Shown here one piece after another: positions 6,983-29,390 of a DNA stretch of 64,000 bases. The number at the start of each line of letters is the position of its first letter. The stretch's first letter is position 1. The position numbers and the translations under genes were made by a program. Source of the DNA: Candidatus Kerfeldbacteria bacterium (GTDB lineage: Bacteria; Patescibacteriota; Patescibacteriia; SBBC01); contig JAZDNT010000002.1 of assembly GCA_043799405.1 (NCBI GenBank), positions 171,320-235,319 on the forward strand, given 5' to 3'. Under the pieces are notes generated by a model that worked only from the letters and a program-made list of their open reading frames with translations, did not search any database and was not told the DNA's origin.

Positions 6983-7002
6983 GGTGTGTGATTCGATACT
7001 AA

Positions 7003-7209: not shown

Positions 7210-7250
7210 ACGTCTCTAGTGTATCGTGGTGTTCGCTACTTCGCAACGCG

Positions 7251-7634
7251 TCAGTGCTTTCTTGGGTACCGCCGCGCCTGTGCTTTTCTGACCGCATGTT
7301 CGGAAAGGCCGAAGTGGTGCCCGATCTCGTGCCATACCGTCTTTCGTACCTCTTCACTGATCGCTTCGGGCGTTCGTGCAACTACCTCGATCGAGCGTTG
7401 GAAGATCGTTATCTTGTCCGGGAGGATCGGCGTCTGTCCGTAGCGGCCGGTCTTCGGGACGCCTTCGTACAGGCCGAGGAGGAGGGATCCTGCGTGTAAC
7501 CCGGTTTTTCGAAGCTGTTCAGGCGTCGGCTCATCCTGAACGACGATCGCGATGTTCTCAAGAAGCGCCCTGAACTTCTCCGGGATGTCTATGAGGCTTT
7601 CTCCGACGAGATGTTCGAATGTTTCTCGATCCAT
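7251..7634 (-). CDS. Metallopeptidase-family protein (minimal zincin, DUF1025-like)
   Basis: HExxH in VWHEIGHHFGLSE. The size and layout are typical of this small family. Confidence 0.75.
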   Translation of the reverse strand: MDRETFEHLVGESLIDIPEKFRALLENIAIVVQDEPTPEQLRKTGLHAGSLLLGLYEGVPKTGRYGQTPILPDKITIFQRSIEVVARTPEAISEEVRKTVWHEIGHHFGLSEHAVRKAQARRYPRKH

Positions 7635-12029: not shown

Positions 12030-12087
12030 GCTGCTTGTGTGGTTGGCGTCCGGCGGGATGGCGATCGACGGATTTAATCTTGTAGCA

Positions 12088-12651
12088 TTAACTGGCGATA
12101 GTCGATCGCCACTTTATCGAGCACCCCATGCTCGGCTTCTGATCGAGGTCCGGCGTTTCGCCGCGGTGGATCCGGTCGATAGCATTTTTTAGGTCATGCG
12201 TTCTCGCTTTCTCTGGTTCTTTCCAGTTGTCATTGATGCGGCCGTGGTACGCGAGGTGGCGGTTCCGGTTGTAGACGAAGATATCCGGCGTGCAAACCGC
12301 CCCGAATTCGTGCGCCATGTCCTGCGATTCATCGCGGAGGTACGGGAACGGGTATGAGTACCGATCTTCCTTCATTTTATCCGTTGCATCTTCAGGATAT
12401 TCTTTTACATCGTTGCTGTTGATCGCGACGAACTGCAGGGACGCCTTTCTGTCTTGGTAGTGTTTCCAGAGGTCGATGAGCTGCGGGCGTACTGCCTGGG
12501 CGTACGGGCAGTGGTTGCAGGTAAAGATAACGACAAGCACAAGCTTATCTCCCCAGTCGCCGAGCGTGTAGACCTTGCCGAAAGCATCCGGCAGCTCGAA
12601 GAGCGGGATCGGTTCGTGGAATTGGGGTGGTTTCGAATAGGTGAGAGACAT
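12088..12651 (-). CDS. Thioredoxin-fold thiol-disulfide oxidoreductase (AhpC/TSA-redoxin-like)
   Basis: LVLVVIFTCNHCPYAQ contains a CxxC in a thioredoxin-fold context. Confidence 0.75.
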   Translation of the reverse strand: MSLTYSKPPQFHEPIPLFELPDAFGKVYTLGDWGDKLVLVVIFTCNHCPYAQAVRPQLIDLWKHYQDRKASLQFVAINSNDVKEYPEDATDKMKEDRYSYPFPYLRDESQDMAHEFGAVCTPDIFVYNRNRHLAYHGRINDNWKEPEKARTHDLKNAIDRIHRGETPDLDQKPSMGCSIKWRSTIAS

Positions 12652-12724
12652 AAGCGCCTTTTTCTATCACAAAGTATACCATGTGTCAATGGTCTTTGGA
12701 AGGCGCGAACGGCGTGTTTATTGC

Positions 12725-12796
12725 TGTCACTCCGGACCCCGAGCCGGAGTCCCGTCGATCGTCTCAGAAGACCCTGAAACAAGTTCAGGGTGACAA
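12725..12796. repeat. Dual-hairpin MITE-like mini-repeat, copy 1
   Basis: TGTCAC-TCCGG..CCGGA hairpin plus ACCCTGAAACAAGTTCAGGGT hairpin plus GACAA. Co-linear with 30155..30226. Termini are TTGTCA/TGACAA-like inverted repeats. Confidence 0.7.
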
Positions 12797-12819
12797 TCGT
12801 ACCGATGCGCCGTTCGCGC

Positions 12820-13503
12820 TTACAGGATGTCCGTACGCCGAACCTCGCGCCACTCTCCGGTCTTAAGCTCATTGAGCGCGAGTTTTCCAAGACGTACCCG
12901 TGTGAGACGGACGACGTCGTTTCTTACTTTGCCGATCATGCGCCGGATCTGGCGGTTCCAGCCCTGGTGGATGACGATGCGGTATGTCGTGCGGCCTGCC
13001 GGTTCGATGTGGTCCACGACCGCAGTACCCTCGGTCATCCTGATGCCTCTCCTGAGCCGGTTGATCGATGCGTCATCGAGCGGTTTCACGGTCGTGACGA
13101 GGTATTCTTTTTCATGACGGAAGCGCGGGTGCGTGAGCCGGTTGACGAATTCGCCGTCGTTCGTCAGTACGATCAGTCCGTCGGATTCCATGTCGAGCCG
13201 GCCGGCGATTGCCAGCTTCCCGCTGTTCGGAACGAGCTGGTATACGGTCCTCGCACGTCCTTGCGCGATTTTAGAACAAACGATGCCCGTCGGTTTGTTC
13301 AGGGCGATGTAGGTGAAAGCGGTGACGTTTGCGACGGGTCGGCCGTTGACAGTAACCGCGTCATGATCGGGATCGACGCTCGTTCCCATCTTCGTAACGA
13401 CCGAGCCGTTGACCGTGACATACCCGGCAGTAATGAGCTCTTCAGCTCTTCGGCGAGATGCGACGCCTGCTCCAGCAAGGAATTTTTGGAGGCGTTCTTT
13501 CAT
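12820..13503 (-). CDS. Pseudouridine synthase, RsuA/RluB family with S4 domain
   Basis: MKERLQKFLAGAGVASRRRAEELI (S4 domain), LNKPTG, AGRLDMESDGLIVLTNDG. Confidence 0.9.
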   Translation of the reverse strand: MKERLQKFLAGAGVASRRRAEELITAGYVTVNGSVVTKMGTSVDPDHDAVTVNGRPVANVTAFTYIALNKPTGIVCSKIAQGRARTVYQLVPNSGKLAIAGRLDMESDGLIVLTNDGEFVNRLTHPRFRHEKEYLVTTVKPLDDASINRLRRGIRMTEGTAVVDHIEPAGRTTYRIVIHQGWNRQIRRMIGKVRNDVVRLTRVRLGKLALNELKTGEWREVRRTDIL

Positions 13504-13639
13504 GGATGCAGTGTAGCATAATAGCTAGTAAGACTTGACAATGTGTTACACGCGTGCTATGCTTCTCTGCTTTTCCTGAAGTCCGTAAACCTGCACCCGG
13601 AACGCAGAGCGTTACCGGTAAGAAAGAGGAGAGAGCAGC

Positions 13640-14272
13640 GTGGGCATCGTCGATCGTTACAAGGAAGTTGCAGTACAGCCCAGATTCCAGGGATGGCCGC
13701 TCGTCGGCGAGTATGAGCTGGGGCCGAAGATCCCGTTCTTCGGCCAGGTACTGATGTACAAGCTCCAGACCGGCAACGGGGTCGAGGAGTACGTCTCCTT
13801 GCTCCGTCACTTCGGCTGGTCCGTCGTCTTCGGGGTGACCGAGGACCGCGAGGTCATTACGATCGTGCAGTGGAAGCCAGGTGCGAACCAGCCCGGATGG
13901 GAGCTGCCGCCCGGCGGGATCGGCAAGGTGCCGCCCAGCACGAGCGAGAGTGAGATCCGGGACATGACCCAGGCGGCGTTCCTGAAGGAGACCGGGTACA
14001 GCGGGGGGATGTGGGAGCGGCTCGGCCACGTGCTGATCGAGACCGGCAAGTTCCGCGGTTCGGGACCCGATGATCACGGTCTTCCTGCCCACCTGTACAT
14101 GGCTACTGGCCTGCGGCAGGTGCAGGACGCTCGGAGTCCGAATCCGAACGAGATCATCGAGACCTTGATGGTCCCGCTCGCGGAGTTCCCGGAGGTCGTC
14201 GGGTCCGGGCTGTTCGTGGAAACGAGCGCAGTGGCGTGCGCGCTGCTCGCGCTCAGGAAGCTCGGCCTCTAG
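13640..14272 (+). CDS. NUDIX-hydrolase-like protein (degenerate Nudix box), high GC
   Basis: WELPPGGIGKV...ESEIRDMTQAAFLKETGY. GTG start after AGGAGA. A TTGACA-17-TATGCT promoter lies about 85 nt upstream. Confidence 0.55.
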   Translation: MGIVDRYKEVAVQPRFQGWPLVGEYELGPKIPFFGQVLMYKLQTGNGVEEYVSLLRHFGWSVVFGVTEDREVITIVQWKPGANQPGWELPPGGIGKVPPSTSESEIRDMTQAAFLKETGYSGGMWERLGHVLIETGKFRGSGPDDHGLPAHLYMATGLRQVQDARSPNPNEIIETLMVPLAEFPEVVGSGLFVETSAVACALLALRKLGL

Positions 14273-14295
14273 CCGATTCGCTTCCGATGTTCGTC

Positions 14296-14325
14296 AGAGG
14301 GAGGTCGCGTCCGCGGTCTCCCTCT
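14296..14325. terminator. Hairpin between convergent genes
   Basis: AGAGGGAG-14 nt-CTCCCTCT. Confidence 0.55.
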
Positions 14326-14423
14326 TATCGTTGTATCGCTGTTTTTTTGTAACGAAGAAGACCAGCCGGTTGTACCGTCTGGTCCCCCTCCTTGTATCTC
14401 TATGTGCGTCCCTCCGTGGTGGA

Positions 14424-16016
14424 CTACTTCTTCTTCGGAAGAGCGATGACGTGGACCGTTCCGTCAGGTGCCAGCATGAAGTCCCAGTTCATCGCGCGAG
14501 CGAACGCGATGTGCGCGCTCGCCTGCAGAACGAGCTCACGCCGCTTGAGCAGATCAGGGTGCTCGGTGAAGAATTCGTGCCCCTCATGCAGAACGTCGTG
14601 CTGCGTCACTTCGGCATCGTCGAGGGCGTGTACCGGATGCCCCTCCGATGCGCCGCCCTTGCCGCCGTGCTCCTTCAGCGTGACCGGCGTATCGGTGACG
14701 GTGTACGTGCCATCGAAGTTCCGCTCGATGAGGTTCAGCTTCCGAAGCGCTGTCCACTGGTTGGCGAAGCCCCGTTCCCTCGCCCAGGTCGCGAGGTTTT
14801 CCGGCGGCTTCGCGCCTGCCGTTGCCTTCCGGCAGGCAGCGAGCGTATCATGCTCTTTCGGCGTCAGCTCGACCGGCTTCTTGTGTCGTGCCACGTCAGT
14901 ACCCTCCTCTTCCGGTTGTCCAACGTAGTCGGTTCCTTGTGGTGTCCCGTCCGCAGATCCCGATGGCGCATCTGGCGGTGGTGCTGGTTGCAGCGGAGCT
15001 TCATCGGGTTCTGCTGCCGGTTGTTCTTGCTGAATTGGCGCCGCCGCGGGTTGTTCGGAAGCCGATGTTCCGCGCGGCGCTTCTTCTTCGTGGCGCGGTT
15101 GTCCACTGGAACGTGTCTTGATCCGTCCGAGCGCTCCGAGCAGCCACTTCTCATCTATCTCGGGTGGCAGTCCGAAGCTGTGCAGTTCGGTCCAGAGACG
15201 AGCGACGTAGACCGTTGCCTCTGCCTCGTTCTTGAACCTGAACCGTTCGACGAGCTGTCCCATCCTTCGCGGCAATAGGTTGCCATCATCGTCTATGCCG
15301 TAGCAGAAGACGAAGACCTTCTGCTGTTTCGTTGCGAGCGAGACGAGTATCTCGTTCAGCCGTCTCATCCGTTCGCGGTCGGTCGGGAGCCTGCACCGCG
15401 GCGTAAGGTCCCTCAAGAGCGGAGGGGGGTGATCGCGGGTCGACAGCGGCGGAGCGTTCCGGCCGAGGTCGAGCTCACCTCCTTCGTCGTCCTCGTCCCC
15501 AGAGCACCTGCCGGTATGCCTTCTCGCGGTGACCTTGAGGAGCGTTGTGAGCCACGAACGGCCATAGGTCGCCGTCCATCCGTGGAGTTGCCGGAGCTGG
15601 GCGAAGATCCCGTTCAGGTGCGCGCTTGCCTCGTCCACGGTTGTGCAACCGAGGTGGTTGCGGACCTGGATGATGTCCCGCGGTTCGGTCAGGTGCTCGC
15701 TGTTGATCCCGAAGGCGAACAAAAGGTCGTTCCGCGGGTTTTCGCTCAGGCGCCCGATCACCCGGTAGAATCCCTCGAGACGTTCCCGGTCATCGCGTAC
15801 TGCGCACTGCTGGAGCGACTGCAGCATCGCTCCTGTCCAGATGAACGTCGTTTCAGACGGAGGCGGATTAACACGCCGCTCAGGTACTGCCGGAGCCCTT
15901 GCCATCCCGTTCCTCCTTGGATCCCTGGGATTACTGGTTTCGGCAGCGCTAGAAGCACGCTTCCCTGTCGTGTATTGCGTATACGTACGCACCTTACTAG
16001 TACGGTGTCGTATCAA
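14424..16016 (-). CDS. Hypothetical 530-aa protein, high GC, with two sigma-70 region-4-like HTH segments and a P/Q/E-rich linker
   Basis: Segments resemble sigma region 4, for example LATKQQKVFVFCYGIDDDGNLLPRRMGQLVERFRFKNEAEATVYVARLWTEL. Low-complexity QPAAAPIQQEQPAAEPDEAPLQPAPPPD. The 14331..15278 + ORF is its antisense shadow. Confidence 0.55.
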   Translation of the reverse strand: MIRHRTSKVRTYTQYTTGKRASSAAETSNPRDPRRNGMARAPAVPERRVNPPPSETTFIWTGAMLQSLQQCAVRDDRERLEGFYRVIGRLSENPRNDLLFAFGINSEHLTEPRDIIQVRNHLGCTTVDEASAHLNGIFAQLRQLHGWTATYGRSWLTTLLKVTARRHTGRCSGDEDDEGGELDLGRNAPPLSTRDHPPPLLRDLTPRCRLPTDRERMRRLNEILVSLATKQQKVFVFCYGIDDDGNLLPRRMGQLVERFRFKNEAEATVYVARLWTELHSFGLPPEIDEKWLLGALGRIKTRSSGQPRHEEEAPRGTSASEQPAAAPIQQEQPAAEPDEAPLQPAPPPDAPSGSADGTPQGTDYVGQPEEEGTDVARHKKPVELTPKEHDTLAACRKATAGAKPPENLATWARERGFANQWTALRKLNLIERNFDGTYTVTDTPVTLKEHGGKGGASEGHPVHALDDAEVTQHDVLHEGHEFFTEHPDLLKRRELVLQASAHIAFARAMNWDFMLAPDGTVHVIALPKKK

Positions 16017-16197
16017 TTACAGAATTGTGTAAGGTGCCTGCAGTATCCGGAGTAGTCCGTAAGCTTTTTAACAGAAAGACCAGCGATGTGTCAACTAGTA
16101 AGAACAGCCGTTCGCGGTACGTAATAACAGAAAGAGCACCGGATTATATCCCAGGCGCCCTTCCATATGCTGATTGTGCTGTGCGTTTTCAGTTAGT

Positions 16198-17763
16198 CTA
16201 CTTTACCGAAACGAGGAGGATCGTGCCCTTGCTCTTAAGGGTCGCGGAAGCCCTTCCGCTCGAGGGGTAGTTCTTTCCGGCATACTGCCACTTTTTTGTT
16301 GATTCGTTGTAAAAGGCGATCTTGAGCTTATCGGCTTTCACATTCTTTGCTGCGAGTTTATTGCTGTCGTAGTAGAAGGTGACGGTGTAGGATTTCTTTA
16401 TCGACGTTGCGCTCACCTTGTATGCTTTCGAGAATGCCGCGCTGTATCCTGCCAGCTTTACCTTTGGTGTCGATACCTTTCTAAGGGTAAGGTTGAGGTT
16501 TCCGTAGGGATTCGAAAGCTGGACCTCTGACTGCGGACGGAGGGTAACATTACGTGGCCAGTCGATCTTCGTGAACTGGTTGTCGTTGACGTCGAGCTGG
16601 TACATCCGTTTGTCGCCATAGACGAGGACGTAGGTTTCCGGCGGAAGGTATACGTCTCTGTAACCGAGCTCGCCCGTTGAGATGTTCGTGAGGATCGTCG
16701 TAACGAGGACCGGCTTGCCCGCAGCATCAATTCTCTGGGTGCCGATATTGAACTTCGCTCCCTTGATGACGGCGCCCGTTGCATCCCGGATGATGATCCT
16801 GAATCCGCTCATCCGGTACGTTACCGTCGTAAGCTCCTGGCTCGTCATCACAACGTTGTATCGATAGAAGTAACCGTTTGACCCGTTGATCCTGATGACG
16901 TAGGTTCCCGGCTTCAGGTAGGCGACAGCGCCGCCCGTACTGCCGGTAGAAAGGTCGCTCACCACCTGAGCGCCGAGGATCGCCTTCCCGCGTACGTCGT
17001 GGTCCTGGACGTAAATCGAGATCTTCTGGCTCAGCACAAGGTTCCCGTACCCGTCCTCGACGATCGTTCGGAGCGTACTGAGCTTATAGTCGAGAAGCGT
17101 TACTGCACCAGCGCTGACCTGCTGATTCCAGAGGTAGAAGTAGTCTTTGCCGCCGCTCATCTTTACGCGTACGACGTAGTTCCCTGCGGCCAAAAACGTG
17201 TTCTTCGCGCCAAAGTCGCCGGTATCGTAGTTCGAGATAACAAGTTTATCAACGTCAAGCCTCGTTTCATCGACGATCGGCTGATTGTTGACATCATACC
17301 CTTGCAGGTAAACGTCGAAGTAGGCTTTTTTTATGACATTATTCTCCGCGTTCCGCATGAGCACGTAGAGACCGCTCATCTTGATTTCCGCGATATACAT
17401 GAGGGTATCCGTTTGCGTCATCTGGTTCGACCAGATCGTAAAGTAGCCGTACGTTGCGCTCGATTCATAGATCTTCACTGCGAACGGGAACTTCTTCGCG
17501 TCGCCGCAGATGAGGGCGCTCTGTCCGCCGGCATCCGTTTTTCCGGACGCGACAACCGAGCCGAAGTAGGGGCCGCCGTCGGGATTGGTGAGCTGCTGGT
17601 AGACGACGTAGTTAATGCCGGCCTGGAGCGTTCCGCCTGCGTCACGCGTTATGACCTTGATCGGTATCGGGGTTCCATTGCAGGGACCGATGGCATGAGC
17701 GCTGTGACGCGCGAAGAGCACGGCCGCGACCACGATGACGATGACTGATGCGATTTTTTTCAT
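16198..17763 (-). CDS. Secreted protein built of tandem ~85-aa beta-sandwich (CarboxypepD_reg/Ig-like) repeats
   Basis: Signal peptide MKKIASVIVIVVAAVLFARHSAHA. It carries the recurring pattern ..GxxVxxAxFxVY....G..YxxxxxxGxYVVRVxxxG. Confidence 0.7.
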   Translation of the reverse strand: MKKIASVIVIVVAAVLFARHSAHAIGPCNGTPIPIKVITRDAGGTLQAGINYVVYQQLTNPDGGPYFGSVVASGKTDAGGQSALICGDAKKFPFAVKIYESSATYGYFTIWSNQMTQTDTLMYIAEIKMSGLYVLMRNAENNVIKKAYFDVYLQGYDVNNQPIVDETRLDVDKLVISNYDTGDFGAKNTFLAAGNYVVRVKMSGGKDYFYLWNQQVSAGAVTLLDYKLSTLRTIVEDGYGNLVLSQKISIYVQDHDVRGKAILGAQVVSDLSTGSTGGAVAYLKPGTYVIRINGSNGYFYRYNVVMTSQELTTVTYRMSGFRIIIRDATGAVIKGAKFNIGTQRIDAAGKPVLVTTILTNISTGELGYRDVYLPPETYVLVYGDKRMYQLDVNDNQFTKIDWPRNVTLRPQSEVQLSNPYGNLNLTLRKVSTPKVKLAGYSAAFSKAYKVSATSIKKSYTVTFYYDSNKLAAKNVKADKLKIAFYNESTKKWQYAGKNYPSSGRASATLKSKGTILLVSVK

Positions 17764-17828
17764 AGAAATTGAAATGATTGTACGATGTTGTCACTGTACC
17801 ATCATAGATGGTGTCGGTCAACGAACGC

Positions 17829-18458
17829 CTATGTCCGACAGCGGGCGATCATCTTTATCCACGTCGTTTGCTTGTCCTGCGTTTTCGTTTCGGTCGCGTG
17901 GACAATATCGAAACCAGCTTTCTCGAGCACCTTTCGTAACTGTGGTGATGTCCAGAACGAAAAGTAACGAGAGTACGGGTATCCGTAGTCATTCTCAGTG
18001 ATGAATCCGTCCTGCTGTCGCGGCGTTTTCTTTTTCACTGCGACGTGAAAAAGACCTTTTGGAACGAGGATGCGCTCTGCCTCGCTTAAGACCTTCGGGG
18101 CATCACCCTTCTCAATGTGGAGGAGAGACGCTTTCGCGAAAACGCCGTCGAACGACGCATCCTCAAAGGAGAGCTTCCTCATATCGCCTCGCGTAAAAGG
18201 GGAGTCGGGATTGAGCCGTCTCGCGACTGAAAGGATACGTTCGGAAATATCCAGGCCATGAACGTTATACCCTCGGTTACGCAGCTTTTTTACTTCGACT
18301 CCCGGACCGCAACCGAGCTCGAGAATGTTTGCGCCAGTTGGGAGGAGCAGCGAAAAAAGCTCGATGTAGTCGTCGTCCCACGTGTCGTTCGGGTGATTAT
18401 TCGCATAGTCCTCTGCAATGGCGTCGTACGTCGACCGGACGTGATCGGTATAGTCCAT
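17829..18458 (-). CDS. Class I SAM-dependent methyltransferase
   Basis: Motif I ILELGCGPG, followed by downstream HGLDIS and FDGVFA. Confidence 0.85.
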   Translation of the reverse strand: MDYTDHVRSTYDAIAEDYANNHPNDTWDDDYIELFSLLLPTGANILELGCGPGVEVKKLRNRGYNVHGLDISERILSVARRLNPDSPFTRGDMRKLSFEDASFDGVFAKASLLHIEKGDAPKVLSEAERILVPKGLFHVAVKKKTPRQQDGFITENDYGYPYSRYFSFWTSPQLRKVLEKAGFDIVHATETKTQDKQTTWIKMIARCRT

Positions 18459-18522
18459 AGTATAAGTATAGCAAGAACAGCCGAAACAAGCCTTTGCCGA
18501 TCAGCAGGGGCGAAAACTATCC

Positions 18523-19929
18523 CTAGGTTTTTTTCGCGGTTTTGCCGCGCCCGTTTGCTGTATCGAACGTTACGATGAACTGGGAGCCGACGCCCTCGAT
18601 GCTCTCGACCTCGATTCCGCCGCTCATCTTCTCGACGATCTGCTTCGTGATCCAGAGCCCGAGACCTGTTCCGCTGATCTCGCTCGTCTTATCGTTCTGC
18701 ACGCGGTAGAATTTCGTAAAGAGGCGCTCGAGCTCCTTCGGGCTCATGCCGATGCCAGTGTCAGCGACCTTGATGCGGAGCGTTCCCTCATGTACTTCGG
18801 GCTGGACCGAAACGTTCCCCTTCGGCGTGTACTTGATGCCGTTGCCGACGAGGTTGACCATGACCTGCTTGAACCGGTCGCGGTTTACGGAAATGACCGG
18901 AAGCGGACCTGAGCTAGTACACGTCAGGGCAAGATTCTTCTCTTGCGCCATTGGCATGAGCTCGGTGATGACCTCTTGGATGACCGCGAAGGGTTCGACG
19001 TCAGAAAGCTTAAGGTCGAGCCGGCCCTGCTCGATGCGCGAGACGTTCAAAAGGTCCTCGACGAGCACGTTCAGGCGGTCCGCGCTCTTCGCGACGGTCG
19101 TTAACGCCTCTTTTGCCTTGTCGGGGATTGTACCGAAGCTGCCATCGAGCGTCATATCGATGTACCCGCGGATCCCCGTGATTGGCGTTCTAAGCTCGTG
19201 TGATGCAATGGAGATGAATTCATCCTTCATCTGGTCGACCTCCTTGAGCTTCTGGAAGAGGATCGTGTACTGGAACAGCTTCGTGTTGCTCGCGAGCAGG
19301 AGGATCACGACGAGGATCGTCGCTATCAGCATCACCGTTGCTCTCGTAACGCTTCCTCGGACGAGGTCATCGACGACCTGCGATGAGAACTTCATGCTGA
19401 TGAGCGCGACGTGTTTACCTTCGGAATTCTTGATCGGACTCACGACGACCCAGAACCGGCGTGTTGAATCACCCGGCAGGATCTCCTGGTTAACGGTCGC
19501 CTTATCGGATGAGATCGTCTGGTATGCGATCGCTTCGTTGCGGTGCCACGCAATGACCGCATTGAGATCATCGACATCCTTGCCGACGAGCGACGGGACG
19601 GCGCTTGCTACGACCGTGAACAATTCGCCCTGCGGTTTAAGAACGTCAATGCCCCACACTTCTTCGCTCGAGGACTTCACGTTATCGACGTACTCCTGCA
19701 GCTTTGTTTGGTCTTGTACTGCTGTTCCGACGACCGACTGGAACACCTGTTCAGCGAGGAACGCCTTCCGCTGCAGCTCGATGTCCATGTTCTGTCGCGC
19801 CGACTGGACCGTAGAGAGCGTGTTGAATACCATCGTCGTCGGTATGAGGATGAGGAGCAGGACCGCGAAAACGACCTGACCCCGTTCGCTCAGGAAGAAC
19901 GCCTGGATTGCTTTGAACAGTTGTTTCAT
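18523..19929 (-). CDS. Sensor histidine kinase (HisKA + HATPase_c), no adjacent response regulator
   Basis: H-box SIASHELRTPIT, N/G boxes NLVGNGIKYT and DTGIGM..GTGLGLWI. Two TM segments flank an extracytoplasmic domain. The start is taken at MKQLFKAIQ; the track ORF extends to 19983. Confidence 0.9.
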   Translation of the reverse strand: MKQLFKAIQAFFLSERGQVVFAVLLLILIPTTMVFNTLSTVQSARQNMDIELQRKAFLAEQVFQSVVGTAVQDQTKLQEYVDNVKSSSEEVWGIDVLKPQGELFTVVASAVPSLVGKDVDDLNAVIAWHRNEAIAYQTISSDKATVNQEILPGDSTRRFWVVVSPIKNSEGKHVALISMKFSSQVVDDLVRGSVTRATVMLIATILVVILLLASNTKLFQYTILFQKLKEVDQMKDEFISIASHELRTPITGIRGYIDMTLDGSFGTIPDKAKEALTTVAKSADRLNVLVEDLLNVSRIEQGRLDLKLSDVEPFAVIQEVITELMPMAQEKNLALTCTSSGPLPVISVNRDRFKQVMVNLVGNGIKYTPKGNVSVQPEVHEGTLRIKVADTGIGMSPKELERLFTKFYRVQNDKTSEISGTGLGLWITKQIVEKMSGGIEVESIEGVGSQFIVTFDTANGRGKTAKKT

Positions 19930-20078
19930 GGTGTTGTAGTCGATGTATTCATACGGACAAGGAAAAACACGAGGCGTGAGCATGAACGCTCGCTCCTGCG
20001 ATCAGTAAGCCTCTTATATTTTGGATCCTCTCCCGAGAATCGTTTTTTTTCATGGTTGGTTGTTTATTTGACTTATCT

Positions 20079-20107
20079 ATTATACCACGTATTTCAGGTT
20101 CGGTCAA
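20079..20107 (-). promoter_or_regulatory. Sigma-70 consensus-like promoter for the histidine kinase
   Basis: On the minus strand: TTGACC-17 nt-TATAAT. Confidence 0.55.
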
Positions 20108-20463
20108 TGAAAAATTAATTTTCAATACAGCCAAAATGCAAAGCTACGAACACATTAATACGCGTACAAGTTGGTTTTAAAAATTTTTTATAACTATACA
20201 CCCTGGAGTAGCCATCGACACACGAACAATTTGTTTCATTCGGGCTCGGTGTTTCAGATTCGAACCCTTGAATAATAGATACATCTTGCGCAGAGTGGCG
20301 ACCTTTGGATTTCTTTTAAGAACTTGATTGGAGTCAAACTATGGAAACAGTGAGATCTGCTTTGCACAAATATAATAATAAAAACTACACTTATATGTAA
20401 TGGTAATTATTTCGGCTCGCCCTGCATGCGCAGGGCGAGCCGTCCAACAGAACTTCTGCTTCA

Positions 20464-21757
20464 TCAGGCCCCGGTCTCTGCCTCCGCGGCGACCTTCTGT
20501 GCGACCTTCACGGACGCGAACTTCTTCAGCACGTCGAGCAGGATGCCGGGCACCTTCTCCAACTCCTCGGTCACCACGAACTCCAGGGGGCCATGGAGGT
20601 TGTCGCCACCGTACCCCATGTTCGGCGTGGGGACCTTCGGGTAGGTGTTGTTGAACATGGCACCATCGGTGCCGCCCCTGGCCATGTGATCCGTCGCCGT
20701 CACGCCAGCTGCCTCGTGCGCAGCGTGGAGGATCTCCAGCACCTCGGGGGTCATGGACTGCACGTTGTTGATGCAGGCCAGGCGGTTCTTGGTCACCTCG
20801 AGCGTGCAGCCCCCCCCGCGCCGCCTCCTCCTCGGCGATGCGGAGCAGAGTCGCCGTCATCTCGTCGGACACCTCGGCCTCGAAAGCCCGGGGCGCCAGC
20901 ATCAGGACGGTCTGGCTCGGGTTGCCCTCGATGTTGGTGACGTAGAAGAACGACCTCGTCTTGTCCTTGATCCCATCCCACGGTGACGGGTACATTGCCG
21001 TCATCCGTTGGATGAACCGGAGCGCAGCGTAGTGCGACGCCTTCAGCAGCTTCGGGTACTCGCCGGGGTGCGCGTCCTGGCCCCTGAAGGTCAGCATGAC
21101 CTGGCGGCAGTGGAAGCACCCGACGGAGAGGTTCCCGAGCCGAGTGCCGTCCACGGTCAGGAACATGCCGAACGACTCGGCGAGCTCCTTCGGCAGGTGC
21201 TCGATGCCGAGCTGGCCGATCTCCTCGTCCACGCAGAACCAGATCATGACCGGTCCGTGCGTGTATGCGCCGGTGAGCAGCGCCTCGATCAGGGTGACCA
21301 GTGAGGCAACGCCGGCCTTGTCGTCGCCGCCCAGCAGCGTCGTCCCGTCCGAGGTGATGATGTGTTTCCCTTCGAGGCCCGCGAGGTGGTCCGCCGGAAT
21401 CACCACGTCGTTGAAGGGCAGCTTGATGTCTCCGCCCGCGTAGTCGTGGATCGTCGGCTTCGCATCGCCCGGCATGCCATAGTAGGTGTCGACGTGCCCT
21501 GCGAGGCACATGCGCTTCGCGTCCTCGAAGCCGGGAGTGGCCGGGATGTCGACGAGGATCGAGTGGTCGCCGAGGTGCGTAATGCAGGCATCGGGCACGC
21601 CGATCGTAGTCAGCTCCACCGCCAGCATGCCCATGAAGGTCAGCTGGCCAGGACTGCTGGGCGTCGTGACCTCCTCACCCGGGCCGAAGTTGTGTGAGCG
21701 GGTACCCACACGGACGTACTGCAACAAGCGTTCGAGTACTGGAGACTGTGAACCCAA
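20464..21757 (-). pseudogene. pepT: Peptidase T (M20B tripeptidase)-like gene with a frameshift in a G8/C8 homopolymer; very high GC
   Basis: SPVLERLLQYVRVGT.., GHVDT, GGDDKAGVA, VDEEIG. The C-terminal third (RGGTDGAMF..YGGDNLHGPLE) lies in another frame (track ORF 20464..20796). The frames join if the C8 run at 20810-20817 is 7 nt. Probable TTG start at 21757 after GGAGGTG. Confidence 0.75.
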
Positions 21758-21941
21758 GGGTACACCTCCGTGTTGGGAATGAGCTGCTATGCTAAGCGTT
21801 CGCTTAGCGCGGACACGGCAACATCCTACAGTTACTGAAATATTTGTCAAGAAAGATATTTTCCAACGCCGCTTGCTGGATACAAAAAAACGGACCGTGA
21901 TCGTTTGTCACAGCAACTGATATCTGAGTATTGTTATATAT

Positions 21942-22146
21942 CTGGGATGGCTAATGGCCACAGCACCAATCGCTGCGCTCTGGTGCTGGGTCTCCGCGGA
22001 GTTTACCCCGCCGAATGGCGGGGCTTCGAGATTCGAACCCATGCTAAAGGTTTACCCAGCACCCATCGTGGTGTTGGGCTCCACCCCGTAGAACGCTCTC
22101 CCCGATCTAGTCGGGGATCGTTCGTGTCCACGGAGCGCGGCAGGCC
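21942..22146 (-). ncRNA. Candidate structured RNA element A (paralogue of B) containing an interrupted tRNA-His 3' half ending in C-CCA
   Basis: It begins at the arsM stop codon. It shares conserved blocks with 22899..23060, separated by covarying hairpins. It contains CCTTTAGCATGGGTTCGAATC and CCATTAGCCATCCCA, which match tRNA-His at 20/21 and 14/15 nt. Confidence 0.5.
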
Positions 22147-22872
22147 CTACTTTGTCGCTTCGATCATGAGGCTTTCGAGAGGAATTCCCTCGTACTGCTG
22201 TTTGCTGATGTCCTTGTTATCCGACAGAACGCATACCGTAAAACCTGCTTCGCGTACCAGTCCGATGTACGCATCCTTCAGTATCGCTCCCGCAACGCAC
22301 CCGGCAATGAGTTCCTTGTCGTTTTTCTGTTCAGGCGAAAGCTTGACGAGGAGGACGATGTCGGATACGTACATGCGTCCGCCGGACTTGAGCACCCGGT
22401 GCGCCTCGCTAAAAACCTTGCGCTTGTCCGGCGCGAGGTTGATCACGCAGTTGGAGATAATCACGTCGACGGAATTGCTCTCAAGCGACAGCCGCTCGAT
22501 GTCTCCGAGGATGAACCGGACGTTGTCATGGCCGTTTGCCTTCGCGTGTGTGCGTGCGCGGTCGACCATCTCCTGAGTGAAGTCGATGCCGATGACTTTT
22601 CCGTGCGTACCGACCTTCTCTGCGGCGAGGAAACAATCAATCCCGCCGCCGCTGCCGAGGTCAAGGACGGTGTCACCTTTCCGTATAACGCTGAACGCGG
22701 TCGGGTTGCCGCACCCGAGCCCGAGGTCCGCGCTGCCGACCTTCTGCAGCTGTTCGTCGGTGTAGCCAATCTGTTTCGAGACGTTCCTATCGGAGCATGA
22801 ACACGCGCACGGTTTTTTCGTTGCAGCGATCGACGAGTACTTTTTCTTGACGATGGATTTTACGTTCTTCAT
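22147..22872 (-). CDS. arsM: Arsenite S-adenosylmethionine methyltransferase
   Basis: VLDLGSGGGID (SAM motif I), DVIISNCVINLAPDK and LIAGCVAGA (the conserved ArsM cysteines), plus an N-terminal CACSC. The start is taken at ATG MKNVKS; the track starts at an upstream TTG. Confidence 0.85.
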   Translation of the reverse strand: MKNVKSIVKKKYSSIAATKKPCACSCSDRNVSKQIGYTDEQLQKVGSADLGLGCGNPTAFSVIRKGDTVLDLGSGGGIDCFLAAEKVGTHGKVIGIDFTQEMVDRARTHAKANGHDNVRFILGDIERLSLESNSVDVIISNCVINLAPDKRKVFSEAHRVLKSGGRMYVSDIVLLVKLSPEQKNDKELIAGCVAGAILKDAYIGLVREAGFTVCVLSDNKDISKQQYEGIPLESLMIEATK

Positions 22873-22898
22873 ATATTCTTGACACAAAATAAGATTTT

Positions 22899-23060
22899 AG
22901 GGTGGCTATCGGCCACAGCACTACTCGTTTCACTCGAGTGCTGGGTAAAGATTCTGCCCCCGAGCTAAAGGTTTACCCAGAACCCGAATGCAATGAGTGG
23001 TTCTGGGCTTCCACCCCGTAGAACGCTCACGATGTTCGCGTCCACGGGGCGCGGCAGGCC
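22899..23060 (-). ncRNA. Candidate structured RNA element B between tRNA-His and arsM
   Basis: Co-linear with element A (GGCCTGCCGCGC, GAGCGTTCTACGGGGTGGA, CTGGGTAAACCTTTAGC, GTGCTGTGGCC, TAGCCACCC). No ORF and no terminator separates it from tRNA-His. Confidence 0.5.
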
Positions 23061-23089
23061 AAGTATGTCCACGCAGGTGGCTACCACCT

Positions 23090-23164
23090 TGGGGTGGCTA
23101 ATGGGAATCGAACCCATGCTAAAGGCTCCACAGGCCTCTGTGCTACCGCTACACCATAGCCACC
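23090..23164 (-). tRNA. tRNA-His (anticodon GTG) with encoded G-1 and CCA
   Basis: Manual cloverleaf: G-1, acceptor GTGGCTA/TAGCCAC, D-arm GTGT-AGCGGTA-GCAC, anticodon arm GAGGC-CTGTGGA-GCCTT, T-arm ATGGG-TTCGATT-CCCAT, discriminator C, CCA. Confidence 0.9.
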
Positions 23165-23185
23165 ACGTAAGCACTTTGCGCTCGG

Positions 23186-23214
23186 AATGTAGCAAAAAAG
23201 TCGCTGTTTCGCAA
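23186..23214 (-). promoter_or_regulatory. Putative promoter of tRNA-His (and possibly the downstream B-arsM-A unit)
   Basis: On the minus strand: TTGCGA-17 nt-TACATT, about 15 nt upstream of the tRNA 5' end. Confidence 0.4.
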
Positions 23215-23923: not shown

Positions 23924-25429
23924 ATGAACAGAAAGGTGTTTCAAAAAAATTTGGAGGCATTACTACCATCGGTGTTGTCATATGCTGTCGATGAGATTCC
24001 AAAATTGAAAAAAGTATTAGAAACACGTCATCAACAAGATTCTACATCGAGTGAATTCAAAACATTTATTAATAAATGTCATGAGGGCTTTAAGAAAGCT
24101 CAAACACAAATCATCCCCATTTTACTTGTACTTGAAGACGAGATAATTATCGTCAAACAACAAATATTCGCCTGCGAGAGGGGCAAGCATAAAAAGGAAT
24201 TAGAAAGAGACGAAATCCATAATCGGCTTTCTGATGAACTATTTGAGCTTGAAATTCAAAGACGTGCAATAAAAAATGTTGCGGATGTAATTGTTTGGAA
24301 TATCTTTCATTTGGAAAAAACGCATATTAAAGCATTCATGACACCCTCTATGCATAGCGGCTATTTGAAGGATAGGGACATAAAATCTGTAAAGAAAATT
24401 GCTGAAGAATATAATCGGGACGAAAATAGTTTTGCGTTGATTACCGATATCACTTCTACGATAGGCATCGGTGATATTTTACTGATTAAAGGGGGCGAAT
24501 TTCATGTAATTGAAGTCGGAGGAGGAGAAAAAAATGACAAGGTTGAAAATACACTGCATGAGGTTTTTGGATCTGGATTAGATAAAGCCGATATCAATAA
24601 ATGGCGGGATCTAATGAGAGATTCAGACTTCCATGAAAAAAAACATCTCTACCGAAAAACAAAACAATTACTAAGATCAATGGCGGCGGTTCATTATCTG
24701 CAATTCGACGAAGGATATGATCCTACACTGAAAGCATACAAAAAAGCGACCACAATTGAAGCTCCTTCACAATCTTTTTCAGAAATTATTAATCTTGCTC
24801 TCGATCAAGAAGACAAGTGGTCAAAATATCCATTTCTATTGCCATTGGATTGTGTCATTGTTGGAATCGTAAAAAGAAATACCCCCGCATCCTATTTAAC
24901 TAGCGAGTGGGAATTCAAACATCATCTATACCATTTTATTTATGAACCTTGGGAGAATTGTGGTTACGGCAAGTTGCAAGAGTCAAATAAAGAATCCGAC
25001 GAAAGTTTTTTTGAATTTCCAAAATACTATAATATTCCAATATTCCGATTGCTCCAAGCGGTTTTTTATCCCGTAGTTTTACCGCTTTACATTACTCTGA
25101 AACCACAACATGCGATTAGTTTATATTGCAGAATAATGTCCATCTTCATGTTCTTTGATGGTGATCGGTTTATAGATATGTGTCATGAAAGAGGCCTTGA
25201 TGCAGAGTGGAACGAGTATCCAAATCAATTGAAAGGAGGAAATACTCGTGATCTCGCAAAATTCGACAAGGGTTATATTCAAATATCTTACGAGGGAACA
25301 ACGATTTTTCTTGGAAACGGTATTTTATTTCGCATGCTTTACGAATTTCAATCGGGCTATAGCACTATTGAACAAATTAAAGAAATGTTAATCACTACCA
25401 CAGAACAACATATGAGAAAAGAAAAATAA
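23924..25429 (+). CDS. AT-rich orphan protein (501 aa) with coiled-coil N-terminus and a possible PD-(D/E)xK/NERD-like core
   Basis: Its composition is far lower in GC than its flanks and it has no SD. The central segment ALITDITSTIGIGDILLIKGGEFHVIEVGGGEKN resembles the D..(hhh)..hhExK strand pattern, but the K is displaced. Confidence 0.6.
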   Translation: MNRKVFQKNLEALLPSVLSYAVDEIPKLKKVLETRHQQDSTSSEFKTFINKCHEGFKKAQTQIIPILLVLEDEIIIVKQQIFACERGKHKKELERDEIHNRLSDELFELEIQRRAIKNVADVIVWNIFHLEKTHIKAFMTPSMHSGYLKDRDIKSVKKIAEEYNRDENSFALITDITSTIGIGDILLIKGGEFHVIEVGGGEKNDKVENTLHEVFGSGLDKADINKWRDLMRDSDFHEKKHLYRKTKQLLRSMAAVHYLQFDEGYDPTLKAYKKATTIEAPSQSFSEIINLALDQEDKWSKYPFLLPLDCVIVGIVKRNTPASYLTSEWEFKHHLYHFIYEPWENCGYGKLQESNKESDESFFEFPKYYNIPIFRLLQAVFYPVVLPLYITLKPQHAISLYCRIMSIFMFFDGDRFIDMCHERGLDAEWNEYPNQLKGGNTRDLAKFDKGYIQISYEGTTIFLGNGILFRMLYEFQSGYSTIEQIKEMLITTTEQHMRKEK

Positions 25430-25523
25430 GTAAAGCCCTTCCTCTCTTGAAAGTCTATTCTTTCCCTACACTCTCATCATCCCGTTTGCCATTGCCGGCC
25501 GCATCGGTTTCGGCGGGGTAAAT

Positions 25524-25549
25524 ACAGCGCGGCATTAATGCCGCGCTGT
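25524..25549. repeat. REP-like perfect palindrome, left copy
   Basis: ACAGCGCGGCATTAATGCCGCGCTGT, identical to 26114..26139. Confidence 0.9.
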
Positions 25550-25594
25550 GTGTATGTGGGTCGTGATGTAGGGTGTTGCGATGACACGCTGCGA

Positions 25595-26032
25595 TCAACT
25601 GCCAACCTTTTCGCGCGCCGCCTCATCGATATACACCCACGGCGGCTTTCCGTACCTTTCCGGTAATTCCGTTTTCCTGAAGTTGTAACGAATATATTCG
25701 ACTGTCCGATTGAATCGCAAGTCACTGTCGATAATGCGGAAATTGAATCGTGGCTGCCAAAACCTTCCTTGCCTCAATAGAATCGAATATCTCCCCTTCA
25801 CGATGTTCATCAATTTCGACAATGAATAGCGCCCGTTCCTCCGTACAAGAAGATGGACGTGATTCGGCAAAACGCAGAAACCAAAAAGCGCGAAGTCGTA
25901 CTGGATGCAGGATCGTCGCAGTACCCGACTGAAACGCACGGCGGTTTTAGATGCAGTAAAATGCAACAAACCAAACGCGGTGTTCGTGGTGACGAAGTAG
26001 ATATGCTGCCCGTCGATTGCGCGTTGCGTCAT
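25595..26032 (-). mobile_element. IS200-like Y1 (HUH) transposase / REP-associated tyrosine transposase (RAYT)-like gene
   Basis: HUH motif in VLPNHVHLLV and a C-terminal tyrosine region EYIRYNFRK. About 146 aa from the internal ATG (MTQRAIDGQHIYF). The track ORF start at 26125 lies inside the right palindrome. Confidence 0.75.
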
Positions 26033-26113
26033 GGCAAATGTTCCGTGACGCGCCACCGACGATGTGAGCGTAAATGCAAATATCGTCGTTGTCAACGTTG
26101 CAGCCATTTCATT

Positions 26114-26139
26114 ACAGCGCGGCATTAATGCCGCGCTGT
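26114..26139. repeat. REP-like perfect palindrome, right copy
   Basis: ACAGCGCGGCATTAATGCCGCGCTGT. Together with 25524..25549 it brackets the RAYT-like gene. Confidence 0.9.
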
Positions 26140-26249: not shown

Positions 26250-26366
26250 CTACTTCGTGATCATCTTCTGGAACAGGGGAACGGCAATGCCGAGCGTTAC
26301 GACACCGAAGGCACCGAGGATAATAAGTTCGAGGCTGACTGCAGAGATACCGGCGCCGAGCACCAT
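26250..26366 (-). CDS. Possible 38-aa hydrophobic peptide
   Basis: Below the ORF-track cutoff. It reads MVLGAGISAVSLELIILGAFGVVTLGIAVPLFQKMITK, with GGAGA about 13 nt upstream. It is co-oriented with tRNA-Arg and the RAYT gene. Confidence 0.3.
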   Translation of the reverse strand: MVLGAGISAVSLELIILGAFGVVTLGIAVPLFQKMITK

Positions 26367-26450
26367 GAAGGTGCGGGATCTCCGCTACGCTCCGAGAGTC
26401 GGTTGGGAGAAAGCGCACGGTTTTGGGCTTACCCGCCCGCCTGACTCGTC

Positions 26451-26525
26451 TGGTGCCCTCGAGAGGAATTGAACCTCTATAACCGGCTTAGAAGTCCGGT
26501 GTTCTATCCGTTGAACTACGAGGGC
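26451..26525 (-). tRNA. tRNA-Arg (anticodon TCT) with encoded CCA
   Basis: GCCCTCG acceptor pairs with CGAGGGC, the anticodon loop is CTTCTAA, the T-arm is AGAGG-TTCAATT-CCTCT, and the 3' end is ACCA. Confidence 0.88.
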
Positions 26526-26690
26526 GTGTCAGGCGAGTCGGGCGGGAAAGTCTCTTGCTCTACCTGCCCCGTACCTAGCGAGCACACGCGAGCATTGGTT
26601 CGGGGTCCATTGTCCCGCGAAGTGGGATCCCGCCTTCCTTGAGAATGTATCATTGAATGAGGCGGAAAGCTACGGGGGCACGCGCAGTGC

Positions 26691-28337: not shown

Positions 28338-29390
28338 TCATTTTGATCTCCTTCTCCGTCCATGGAAGGCTTTATATACGTCACGTAATTGTTGATTGGT
28401 GACATGAGTATATATTTGAGTTGTCGTTATCGATGCGTGACCGAGCATTGCCTGCACCGAACGAATGTCCGCGCCGTTAATAAGGAGATCGGTCGCATAG
28501 CTATGTCGGAGCGTATGTGGCGTGATGCGCTTGTTCACGCCGGCGAGCTTCGCGTACATTGCAACGAGCCGCTGGATGCTGCGGGGCGTGAGTCCCGTTA
28601 GAAGCCCTCGTTGAGAAATGCTATGAGACGAATATTGAGTACGCACTTTATTTTTAGTAGCTTCTAACGGGATGAGTTCGTTAATTTCGGACGATCTCGC
28701 AGCAGCGTGGTCGTGACGGATGAACAACGCCTTGTGGTCGTCGCGCCGGGCATTCAAGTACTCGCCGATGAAGTGCCGCGCGTGGTTCGAAAGGAAGACG
28801 ACGCGGTACTTCCCGCCCTTGCCGCGGACCGTGAACTCGTCCTTATTAAGGTTTAGCTCATCGCGCGAGAGCCGCGATAGCTCGGAAACGCGCAAGCCGG
28901 TCGAAAACAGCAGCTCGAGGATCGCCTTGTCGCGGAGCTTGATGATCTCAGGTTCCTTCGTCTTGAGTGGCGCTTCGAGCAGTCGCTCAAGGTCATCCCC
29001 CTCGATGAAGTTCACCTGCCGTTCGGATGTTTTTGCAAGCTCTATCTTTTCCGGGGCAAGCGTAGTAACGTCGTTCTTCGCGAGGTACTTTAAGAAAGAC
29101 CTGAGCGCGATCAGGTGATAGTTCTGCGTTGACTTTGTAAGGCGCTCGCCGCGGTTGTTCAACTGCTGGTTGAGATACAGACGGAAGTCACGGACATCGT
29201 CGAGCGTTATATCCGAAGGCTTTGTTAATTTCGAGTATGCGAGAAAACGCGTAAGGTAAAATTCGTAGTTGCGTTTCGTAAGTTCCGACGCGCCGCGTTC
29301 GACCACGAGCGAGGTGAGGTACCGTTTCACCCACCGCTCAAGCTCGGACGACGTGCCGCCCTCCTTTTTCTGTATCTGGTTGTCTACCAT
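28338..29390 (-). CDS. Tyrosine recombinase, XerC/XerD family
   Basis: The C-terminal catalytic region reads TPHTLRHSYATDLLINGADIRSVQAMLGHASITTTQIYTHV. The N-terminus has an SAM-like core-binding domain. Confidence 0.9.
   Translation of the reverse strand: MVDNQIQKKEGGTSSELERWVKRYLTSLVVERGASELTKRNYEFYLTRFLAYSKLTKPSDITLDDVRDFRLYLNQQLNNRGERLTKSTQNYHLIALRSFLKYLAKNDVTTLAPEKIELAKTSERQVNFIEGDDLERLLEAPLKTKEPEIIKLRDKAILELLFSTGLRVSELSRLSRDELNLNKDEFTVRGKGGKYRVVFLSNHARHFIGEYLNARRDDHKALFIRHDHAAARSSEINELIPLEATKNKVRTQYSSHSISQRGLLTGLTPRSIQRLVAMYAKLAGVNKRITPHTLRHSYATDLLINGADIRSVQAMLGHASITTTQIYTHVTNQQLRDVYKAFHGRRRRSK

Follow-up and report, generated by a model that had tools for sequence, protein, structure and literature searches.

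Hairpin-interrupted 3' parts of tRNA-His flank an arsM-like gene: members of a clade-specific family of nested tRNA gene fragments

In a 64-kb stretch of a Candidatus Kerfeldbacteria genome (contig JAZDNT010000002.1; the whole stretch is hereafter called the window), an arsM-like gene lies downstream of tRNA-His and is bracketed by two similar elements, B on its upstream and A on its downstream side. What are these elements, how did they come to flank the gene, and is their RNA under selection? An initial annotation, made from the sequence alone, had described them as paralogous, structured RNA-like elements, one of them embedding an interrupted tRNA-His 3' half. The layout and features that it listed were all present in the sequence, and A and B are the sole two copies in the window. 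Coordinates are positions in the window, and the locus, which is read on the minus strand, is arranged as follows:

23186..23214, minus strand: putative promoter, TTGCGA-17 nt-TACATT, before tRNA-His (below the threshold of the consensus scan)
23163-23090, minus strand: intact tRNA-His(GTG), found by ARAGORN (Rfam tRNA, 66.5 bits), with G-1 at 23164
23088-23076, minus strand: minihelix GGTGG-TAG-CCACC (GGTGGTAGCCACC, 13 nt), directly 3' of the tRNA-His CCA
23064..23075, minus strand: orphan 3' arm of a leader-trailer helix, TGCGTGGACATA, with no 5' partner in the window
23060-22898, minus strand: element B, putative 5' untranslated region of arsM
22872-22147, minus strand: arsM-like S-adenosylmethionine-dependent methyltransferase gene, 241 aa (Pfam; NCBIfam arsenite methyltransferase, 293 bits against a cut-off of 263)
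22146-21943, minus strand: element A, beginning right past the arsM TAG stop, putative 3' untranslated region of arsM
21914-21884, minus strand: intrinsic-terminator-like hairpin and T7 run, closing the tRNA-His/B/arsM/A unit

The ArsM protein is 100% identical to an NCBI protein from a Candidatus Kerfeldbacteria metagenome-assembled genome, i.e., from a bacterium of the candidate phyla radiation (CPR).

Alignment showed A and B to be paralogous copies of the 3' two-thirds of tRNA-His, collinear along their whole length with its nucleotides (nt) 27-76, from anticodon stem to acceptor end, and interrupted by hairpins. The motif GGCCTG corresponds to nt 29-34 of the tRNA and GTGGAGCC to nt 34-41, and both elements lack the 5' acceptor strand and the D arm. 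GC-rich hairpins interrupt A and B at three common sites, one in the anticodon loop (34/35), one in the anticodon stem on its 3' strand, and one in the T loop. The insert after G34 is longer in A (57 nt) than in B (41 nt), the one in the anticodon stem shorter (26 nt against 34 nt), and the one in the T loop longer (72 nt, against 46 nt in B with the degenerate loop included); in both elements, the T-loop insert contains a CCCAGCAC..GTGCTG hairpin. Three additional small hairpins occur in A and are absent from B. The pieces and inserts are laid out in this order:

23060-23055, minus strand: B, tRNA piece GGCCTG
23054-23014, minus strand: B, anticodon-loop insert (hairpin)
23013-23006, minus strand: B, tRNA piece TGGAAGCC
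23005-22972, minus strand: B, hairpin insert in the 3' strand of the anticodon stem
22971-22959, minus strand: B, tRNA piece CCTTTAGCTCGGG
22958-22913, minus strand: B, degenerate T loop with the CCCAGCAC..GTGCTG hairpin
22912-22898, minus strand: B, tRNA piece CCGATAGCCACCCTA
22146-22141, minus strand: A, tRNA piece GGCCTG
22140-22084, minus strand: A, anticodon-loop insert with an extra hairpin, TCCCCGA/TCGGGGA
22083-22077, minus strand: A, tRNA piece TGGAGCC
22076-22051, minus strand: A, hairpin insert in the anticodon stem
22050-22030, minus strand: A, tRNA piece CCTTTAGCATGGGTTCGAATC, matching tRNA-His at 20/21
22029-21958, minus strand: A, 72-nt T-loop insert with two extra hairpins and the CCCAGCAC..GTGCTG hairpin
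21957-21943, minus strand: A, tRNA piece CCATTAGCCATCCCA, matching tRNA-His at 14/15

The long identical blocks claimed for A and B were recovered by MAFFT as identical runs of 18, 17, 12, and 11 columns, and this identity is clustered, since none of 20000 shuffles matched the sum of the top four runs. Each of three conserved blocks searched occurs exactly twice in the window, against 0.00-0.06 occurrences expected by chance, and a profile of the element matched B at E=8e-44 and A at E=9e-43. The two tRNA-His matches reported for A, and the ~72-nt insertion that splits them, were likewise correct. What had been called tRNA-His mimicry is indeed derivation from tRNA-His, but it is not limited to two segments of A, as the whole of A and B follows the tRNA. 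The two copies also differ in type. The window's own tRNA-His, in which G-1 and CCA are both encoded, has the T stem ATGGG/CCCAT ("alpha" type), and A, which shares this stem, is an alpha-like copy. B, with the T stem TCGG/CCGA and the 3' end CCTA, is a "beta"-like copy, its T stem being that of an intact tRNA-His variant at a related locus (L202, below). The change in the B T stem was for this reason rejected as a sign of selection on the element: TCGG/CCGA is simply the beta variant.

Relatives of the locus were reached by look-ups of ArsM (L001-L003), by look-ups of the Xer recombinase that adjoins tRNA-Arg (L202-L205; a clade of about 20 relatives with 71-81% identity), and by a second metagenome scan (L170, to which L203 is identical over the region read). 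In L001, L203, and L202, the pieces are arranged around a working gene in one and the same order: a tRNA-His 5' half with inserts (GGTGGCTATGG..GTAG(C/T)GGTAGCA..CAG), one arm of an inverted repeat, an intact tRNA-His, the minihelix, the other arm, and a 3' part. The same minihelix thus follows the inner tRNA-His in both L001/L203 and L202, and the window's tRNA-His is the inner position of such a nest. Two nests read as follows:

L203: 5' half of tRNA-His, GGTGGCTATGGTGTAGTGGTAGCA, a 32-nt hairpin, CAG
L203: complementary arms CGTCAATTGC and GCAATTGACG, enclosing the inner tRNA-His
L203, 13908-13981: intact tRNA-His, then the minihelix
L203: 3' part from GAGGCCTG, with an anticodon-loop hairpin, a UUCG-capped hairpin, and a ~130-nt T-loop insert, ending in CCCCAGTAGCCACCCC
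L203: second partial 3' copy from CCTTTAGC, with a CCCGGCACC..GGTGCTG hairpin, then arsM
L202: outer 5' part, consisting of a homologous leader, GGTGGCTATGG, an insert, GTAGCGGTAGCA, a hairpin, and CAG
L202: arms TGTCCGAACA and TGTTCGGACA around an intact gene for another tRNA-His variant (T stem TCGGG/CCCGA) and the minihelix
L202: outer 3' part, consisting of GAGGCCTG, a 37-nt hairpin, and TGGAGCC...CCA

The UUCG-capped hairpin of L203 occupies the same stem position as the A/B insert and is unrelated to it in sequence. L001 equals the L203 locus minus the DNA between two CTTTAGCCTGGG repeats, plus an extra D-stem insert of ~91 nt. In L202, the outer gene piece comprises tRNA-His nt 26-34, the 37-nt insert, and nt 35-76, and its "exons" are identical to the functional tRNA-His of the window (9/9 and 41/41 by alignment; 11/11 and 12/12 for the 5' segments by reading). 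By reading, too, the leader of the window tRNA-His is homologous to that of the L202 outer gene. L205 carries an intact gene followed by a T-arm fragment with a T-loop insert of ~105 nt homologous to that of L203. The arsM gene is present at the locus in L001 and L203, with the element on its upstream side only, and is missing from L202 and L205; B is orthologous to these upstream elements of L001 and L203, and no counterpart of A was found downstream of arsM in L001. No exact empty site between elements was seen among the relatives examined. The nested architecture appears in assemblies from NCBI, Logan, JGI, and ENA, and over all 1.85 Mb fetched, the element profile matched at these tRNA-His loci only.

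Low-GC DNA adjoins two of the nests. An insert of ~800 nt upstream of the L203 nest (12912-13800) is flanked by two copies of a promoter region (TTGAAAAAT..GGTACGA(T/C)GAGC) and starts with a tRNA-like piece (AGGCCTGCATCCGTCAGG ... GATTCGAACCCCTCCTAAGAACCA) that resembles the start of the 3' elements. Past the 3' end of the outer tRNA-His in L202, a low-GC island with a 160-aa open reading frame (ORF; 6560-7320) is followed by a degenerate T-arm/acceptor-like fragment, CTCGGGTCAGCGGACACCCTCGATAAGCGCC, and resembles a classical island with its displaced fragment.

Nesting is not confined to tRNA-His. At 4951-5231 of L202, an outer tRNA-Arg of the window's type is interrupted by a unit of 112 nt, which lies precisely between nt 35 and 36 and is made up of CCCCGCCCGCCATAGCGA, an intact tRNA-Arg, and GTATGGCGAGCGGGGCGGG, i.e., a tRNA between two arms. 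The outer pieces match the window tRNA-Arg at 31/35 and 25/28, and a further, more decayed outer layer with a T-loop hairpin lies beyond them. The tRNA-Arg(TCT) locus of the window (26356..26679, minus strand) is a degenerate version of this nest, its gene being bracketed by CCCGCCCG..CCTGAC and GTCAGGCGGGCGGG:

26679-26668, 26612-26606, and 26564-26547, minus strand: degenerate outer 5' half, GCCCCCGTAGCT, CAATGGA (after hairpin inserts), and GGTAGAGCAAGAGACTTT
26546-26528, minus strand: 5' helix arm
26525-26451, minus strand: intact inner tRNA-Arg(TCT)
26445-26432, minus strand: 3' helix arm
from 26431, minus strand: outer 3' part, starting TAAGCCC
26393-26356, minus strand: hairpin module in the tRNA-Arg trailer

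The trailer module has an 11-mer, GGAGCGTAGCG, in common with the anticodon-loop insert of L202 tRNA-His. A and B are members of a family of nested tRNA gene pieces that is specific to this clade.

Between the two tRNA loci of the window lies a 501-aa ORF (23924-25429, plus strand) with no Pfam or NCBIfam match and a G+C content of 36%, versus about 55% elsewhere; the stretch is probably foreign DNA. In L204, a segment of ~9 kb directly past tRNA-Arg (11033-20275) carries genes for two recombination enzymes, a large serine recombinase and a tyrosine integrase, and for HTH, RuvC-like, and TIR proteins. It looks like a mobile element integrated at a hot spot, and no tRNA-His occurs within 10 kb of it.

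Are the hairpins in these pieces conserved as structures? For the anticodon-loop hairpin, compared among A, B, L203, and L202 (the 4 sequences on which the covariation statistics were computed), 95.6% of cells in its 12 pairs are paired, versus 29-54% after sliding of the 3' partners. Six of the 12 pairs changed on both sides, and the covariation score was matched by 0 of 500 shuffles. RNAalifold, run on the four elements, yielded 35 pairs, 10 of them compensatory. In addition, the closing pair of the D-arm hairpin changed from T-A to C-G, and in L202 and L203 alike, the two 10-bp arms that enclose the inner tRNA-His pair without a mismatch, though most of their positions differ between the lineages. 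On the tRNA-sense strand, G.U pairs outnumber A.C by 6 to 1, a bias that weakly favors an RNA in the tRNA-sense orientation. Folds of A and B are more stable than those of shuffled controls (z=-4.5 and -3.5, respectively); the single-sequence minimum free energy (MFE) folds of the two elements were mutually inconsistent and were not taken as structures. The proposal that the variable hairpins keep their pairing is therefore right for the insert helices, which covary, but the A stem CCCAACACC/GGTGCTGGG contains an A.C mismatch. Similarly, the notion of a structured RNA family is upheld by homologues in related genomes and by covarying helices; the family is not, however, a novel RNA that embeds a tRNA half, but tRNA-His nt 27-76 with inserts.

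The annotation had been unable to match the elements to any RNA family, and it was right: in a covariance-model search against Rfam, only the intact tRNAs passed, the best match on A being RAGATH-32 (17.5 bits versus a threshold of 41.8; E=0.78). The tRNA-like families scored far under threshold on A and B, and the related loci yielded nothing at threshold besides tRNA. A known ribozyme or riboswitch was rejected, the best match being the fluoride riboswitch with 17 bits versus 34. No match was returned by blastn of A against phages and plasmids, by two exact-pattern scans of a genome collection for the conserved blocks, by a first metagenome scan, or by exact look-ups of the window's proteins. 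The second metagenome scan gave 33 matches, of which only L170 was genuine and the others lay in coding DNA, and two loose scans of viral contigs gave chance matches in coding DNA only, as a profile search confirmed. An integron attC-type site was discarded because the conserved blocks are long and non-palindromic.

The position of A and B at the two ends of arsM raises the question of whether they are transcribed with it. A promoter scan gave no acceptable candidate in the stretch from B to the arsM ATG, and a terminator-like site follows A. The most economical unit would therefore run from the promoter through tRNA-His, B, arsM, and A to the terminator, and A and B would be co-transcribed with tRNA-His and arsM. 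Beyond the terminator-like site, a good promoter (21850-21823) serves the next gene, which is pepT-like. The minihelix between tRNA-His and B looks like two acceptor strands fused, and its 5' strand can alternatively pair with the 3' end of B. When B was folded with the upstream strand, the MFE fold kept the local minihelix, whereas the centroid fold closed B with a GGUGGU/GCCACC stem. At the first pair of this long-range stem, the window has G-C where L001/L203 have A-T, a single, suggestive covariation.

With moderate confidence, we interpret A and B as displaced 3' parts of tRNA-His that arose at the DNA level and now serve as co-transcribed, structured untranslated ends of arsM, with their fold kept by selection. 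A complete replacement tRNA gene, surrounded by a leader-trailer inverted repeat, would have inserted into the anticodon region of an older resident copy, dividing that copy, in the manner of a Russian doll, into an upstream 5' half and a downstream 3' part. The upstream half would subsequently have been lost in the window's lineage. Recombination among the copies, of which the L001 deletion between CTTTAGCCTGGG repeats is an instance, would have followed. B would be the 3' part adjoining arsM, as its orthologs in L001 and L203 are, and A a second copy, formed when one 3' part was duplicated to the far side of the gene; the tRNA-like stretches of A would match the resident tRNA-His probably through gene conversion. 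If the pieces are transcribed beside an essential tRNA and form the two ends of the arsM message, selection may for that reason now keep their helices. Self-folded relics could not mispair with the adjacent, real tRNA-His, and structured ends could stabilize the message; both benefits are more tentative than the origin itself. The stem between GGTGG and the end of B may, in addition, mark the site at which tRNA and message are cut apart.

Several considerations weigh against this interpretation. Co-transcription, stability, and any cleavage are predictions from sequence. The two genome-collection scans and one of the metagenome scans were empty, and about five distinct lineages were found in all, so that the covariation statistics draw on 4 sequences. 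Template-switch repair can keep palindromic DNA complementary without any selection on RNA. The near-identical inserts of A and B sit in different tRNA types (alpha and beta), which needs an extra step, either duplication with conversion or mobility of the inserts. Also, the outer "exons" of L202 are identical to a functional tRNA while the flanking leader has diverged by ~35% (about two-thirds identical); such conservation would not be expected of a copy long dead and is easier to square with a functional outer gene. Finally, genome streamlining should simply have removed a relic of no use.

A further possibility, though less likely than not, is that these CPR bacteria carry a self-replacing tRNA cassette. 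Such a cassette, composed of a complete tRNA gene and a conserved GC-rich inverted repeat around it (CCCGCCCG...CGGGCGGG at tRNA-Arg), would insert site-specifically into the cognate anticodon loop, killing and replacing the resident, and repeated rounds would build up nests. The small hairpins would then be related site-specific insertion modules or, at the extreme, removable intervening sequences of a functional outer tRNA, and A and B would be footprints. There is a substantial chance that some new kind of tRNA-targeting insertion process lies behind the nests. If it is a tRNA-carrying insertion element, selfish DNA would have a new way to occupy an essential single-copy gene and leave the host unharmed.

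We consider it unlikely that A and B are dedicated cis-acting RNAs, i.e., tRNA-like modules for processing and stability, in which B, closed by the GGTGG/GCCACC stem, would be a pseudo-tRNA directing RNase P or RNase Z and A would protect the 3' end. The alternation of identical blocks with variable, pair-preserving hairpins, folds far below the shuffled controls, the closure of B in the centroid fold with its one changed pair, and the presence of an element 25-40 nt ahead of arsM in each of the two lineages with the gene at this locus are all in keeping with such a role. However, B and the L001 copy each have a destroyed T loop, the loop that makes up the elbow recognized by RNase P and RNase Z. 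A lacks a 5' acceptor partner, the 3' ends vary (CCCA, CCTA, and TACA), and the long-range stem competes with the local hairpin that is the MFE fold. Nor is the element tied to arsM: other arsM loci (L004-L007, 68-71% ArsM identity) have neither tRNA-His nor the element, and L202 and L205 carry pieces without arsM. A processing signal is possible for B, not for A. An aminoacylatable tRNA-like structure for histidine, the acceptor mimic of the initial annotation, is weakly supported on similar grounds, as A has no 5' acceptor strand, B ends in CCTA and the L001 copy in TACA, and inserts replace the T loop. Viral 3' tRNA-like structures and mascRNA have non-translational roles. Like these and like the pseudo-tRNA tRNA-Other of B. 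cereus (PMC3399842), A and B are tRNA-derived sequences beside a tRNA/island locus or at an mRNA end, potentially read by tRNA-processing enzymes; unlike them, they lack the 5' acceptor strand and D arm, have a disrupted T loop, and score far below the Rfam tRNA-like thresholds. Separately, one ArsM relative (74% identity) has a 349-nt uncalled stretch upstream of its gene, which is suggestive.

It is improbable that A and B are classical att repeats, left as attL/attR-type direct repeats when a tyrosine recombinase put arsM into tRNA-His as a small cassette. For the origin of the elements, this was nevertheless the nearest of the readings put forward at the outset. Displaced tRNA gene fragments are found at the ends of genomic islands integrated in tRNA genes (Islander, PMC4383910; tRNA gene fragments, PMC9897764), and, like them, A and B are partial 3' copies in direct orientation downstream of the intact gene, extending from the anticodon stem to the 3' end. 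The locus also collects foreign DNA, as seen from the low-GC ORF of the window, the L202 island with its T-arm fragment, and the serine-recombinase island of L204, and an Xer-type recombinase lies 5 kb upstream. But, unlike island fragments, the block of identity is not contiguous, being broken by three or more conserved hairpin inserts of 41-72 nt (three in B, more in A), and arsM is the only gene between A and B, where no integrase is found. The nearest tyrosine recombinase (28338-29390) is outside this segment and is syntenic next to tRNA-Arg in all relatives, nested or not, and is therefore probably a housekeeping enzyme. In L001 and L203, arsM has an element upstream only. Integration on the 3' side does not give 5' halves upstream of an intact gene, such as the relatives have, and here a covarying inverted repeat brackets that gene; at tRNA-Arg, moreover, the inner unit is a clean 35/36 insertion with no duplicated tRNA segment. 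The idea that the pepT-like gene was a second, serially captured cargo fails, since it has its own promoter and a profile search found no A/B-like element on its far side.

To our knowledge, no bacterial enzyme system splices inserts such as these. It is highly improbable, then, that the inserts are introns or intervening sequences of a multiply interrupted, functional outer pre-tRNA-His, one of them carrying another tRNA-His, with A and B as decayed sets of 3' exons: the L202 outer "exons" with their diverged leader, the promoter-like leader and encoded CCA of that gene, homologous inserts at the same positions in different tRNA-His variants, and the wealth of Patescibacteria in tRNA introns, including at 35/36 (PMC13011429), the exact L202 tRNA-Arg site, speak for it, but the inserts are hairpins of 26-130 nt, too small for group I introns, Rfam finds no intron, an intact inner copy exists in every genome, and the window has lost the 5' half and retains only degenerate forms of the T loop and CCA in B. 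Inspected by eye, the His junction CTG|..|TGGA and the Arg junction CTTC|..|TAA form internal loops beside a long helix, not the two 3-nt bulges 4 bp apart of a bulge-helix-bulge motif. In Archaea, split, multi-intron, and permuted tRNA genes occur, and a mobile-element model has been advanced for a tRNA-Thr 5' fragment of Caldiarchaeum (PMC3293823). The nests share with these genes several non-canonical breaks, halves that lie apart, a complementary leader-trailer helix, and a proposed origin in mobile DNA; they differ in their bacterial host, in the lack of a bulge-helix-bulge motif (by eye) and of a known splicing endonuclease, and in having an intact copy of the tRNA gene enclosed by the disrupted one. 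Group I introns at 35/36 of Patescibacteria tRNA genes (PMC13011429, whose main text does not treat tRNA-His) come from the same phylum and, at tRNA-Arg, from the same site, the tRNA-His insert (34/35) being close to it. A group I intron was rejected here, as the anticodon-loop inserts are single hairpins of 37-57 nt, or else a whole tRNA gene with arms, without an Rfam intron match or the core (P3-P9), which typically takes 200 nt or more.

A and B themselves are real, non-random, and conserved. No account of nested bacterial tRNA genes was found in the searchable literature, of which coverage is incomplete. tRNA gene fragments are usually taken as passive scars of island integration. Distinct here are covarying hairpin inserts at fixed positions, complete interrupted genes around a working gene in sister genomes, and a second tRNA with a base-precise insertion at 35/36. 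Should the outer genes prove functional, they would represent a new kind of tRNA gene interruption in bacteria. For annotation of CPR genomes, the results mean that pseudo-tRNA pieces are overlooked and that untranslated ends of genes co-transcribed with tRNAs are not recognized. They may also inform how expansion-like hairpins accrete on RNAs in the Patescibacteria phylum.

Further observations concern other features of the window. The pepT-like peptidase gene (20339-21850, minus strand) is split by a frameshift near 20796 into an N-terminal part (20793-21850) and a C-terminal part in another frame (20464-20796), and is either a pseudogene or an assembly error. Dispersed repeats of the repetitive extragenic palindrome (REP) or miniature inverted-repeat transposable element type, as associated with REP-associated tyrosine transposases (RAYTs), were rejected as the source of the hairpin modules, which, both in the window and in the relatives' loci searched, are confined to tRNA-His and tRNA-Arg. 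A RAYT gene (Y1_Tnp; 25595-26125, minus strand) does occur in the window, flanked by two identical, perfect 27-nt palindromes, TACAGCGCGGCATTAATGCCGCGCTGT (25523-26139), which differ from the hairpin modules of the tRNA loci; the sequences just beyond both palindromes are alike, as if a short stretch had been duplicated. At 33581-33656, two tandem 37-nt copies of GC(C/G)G(T/A)GGTTTCCGTGATGACCGAAGGGGACCACCGCG, 95% identical, lie 39 nt apart.

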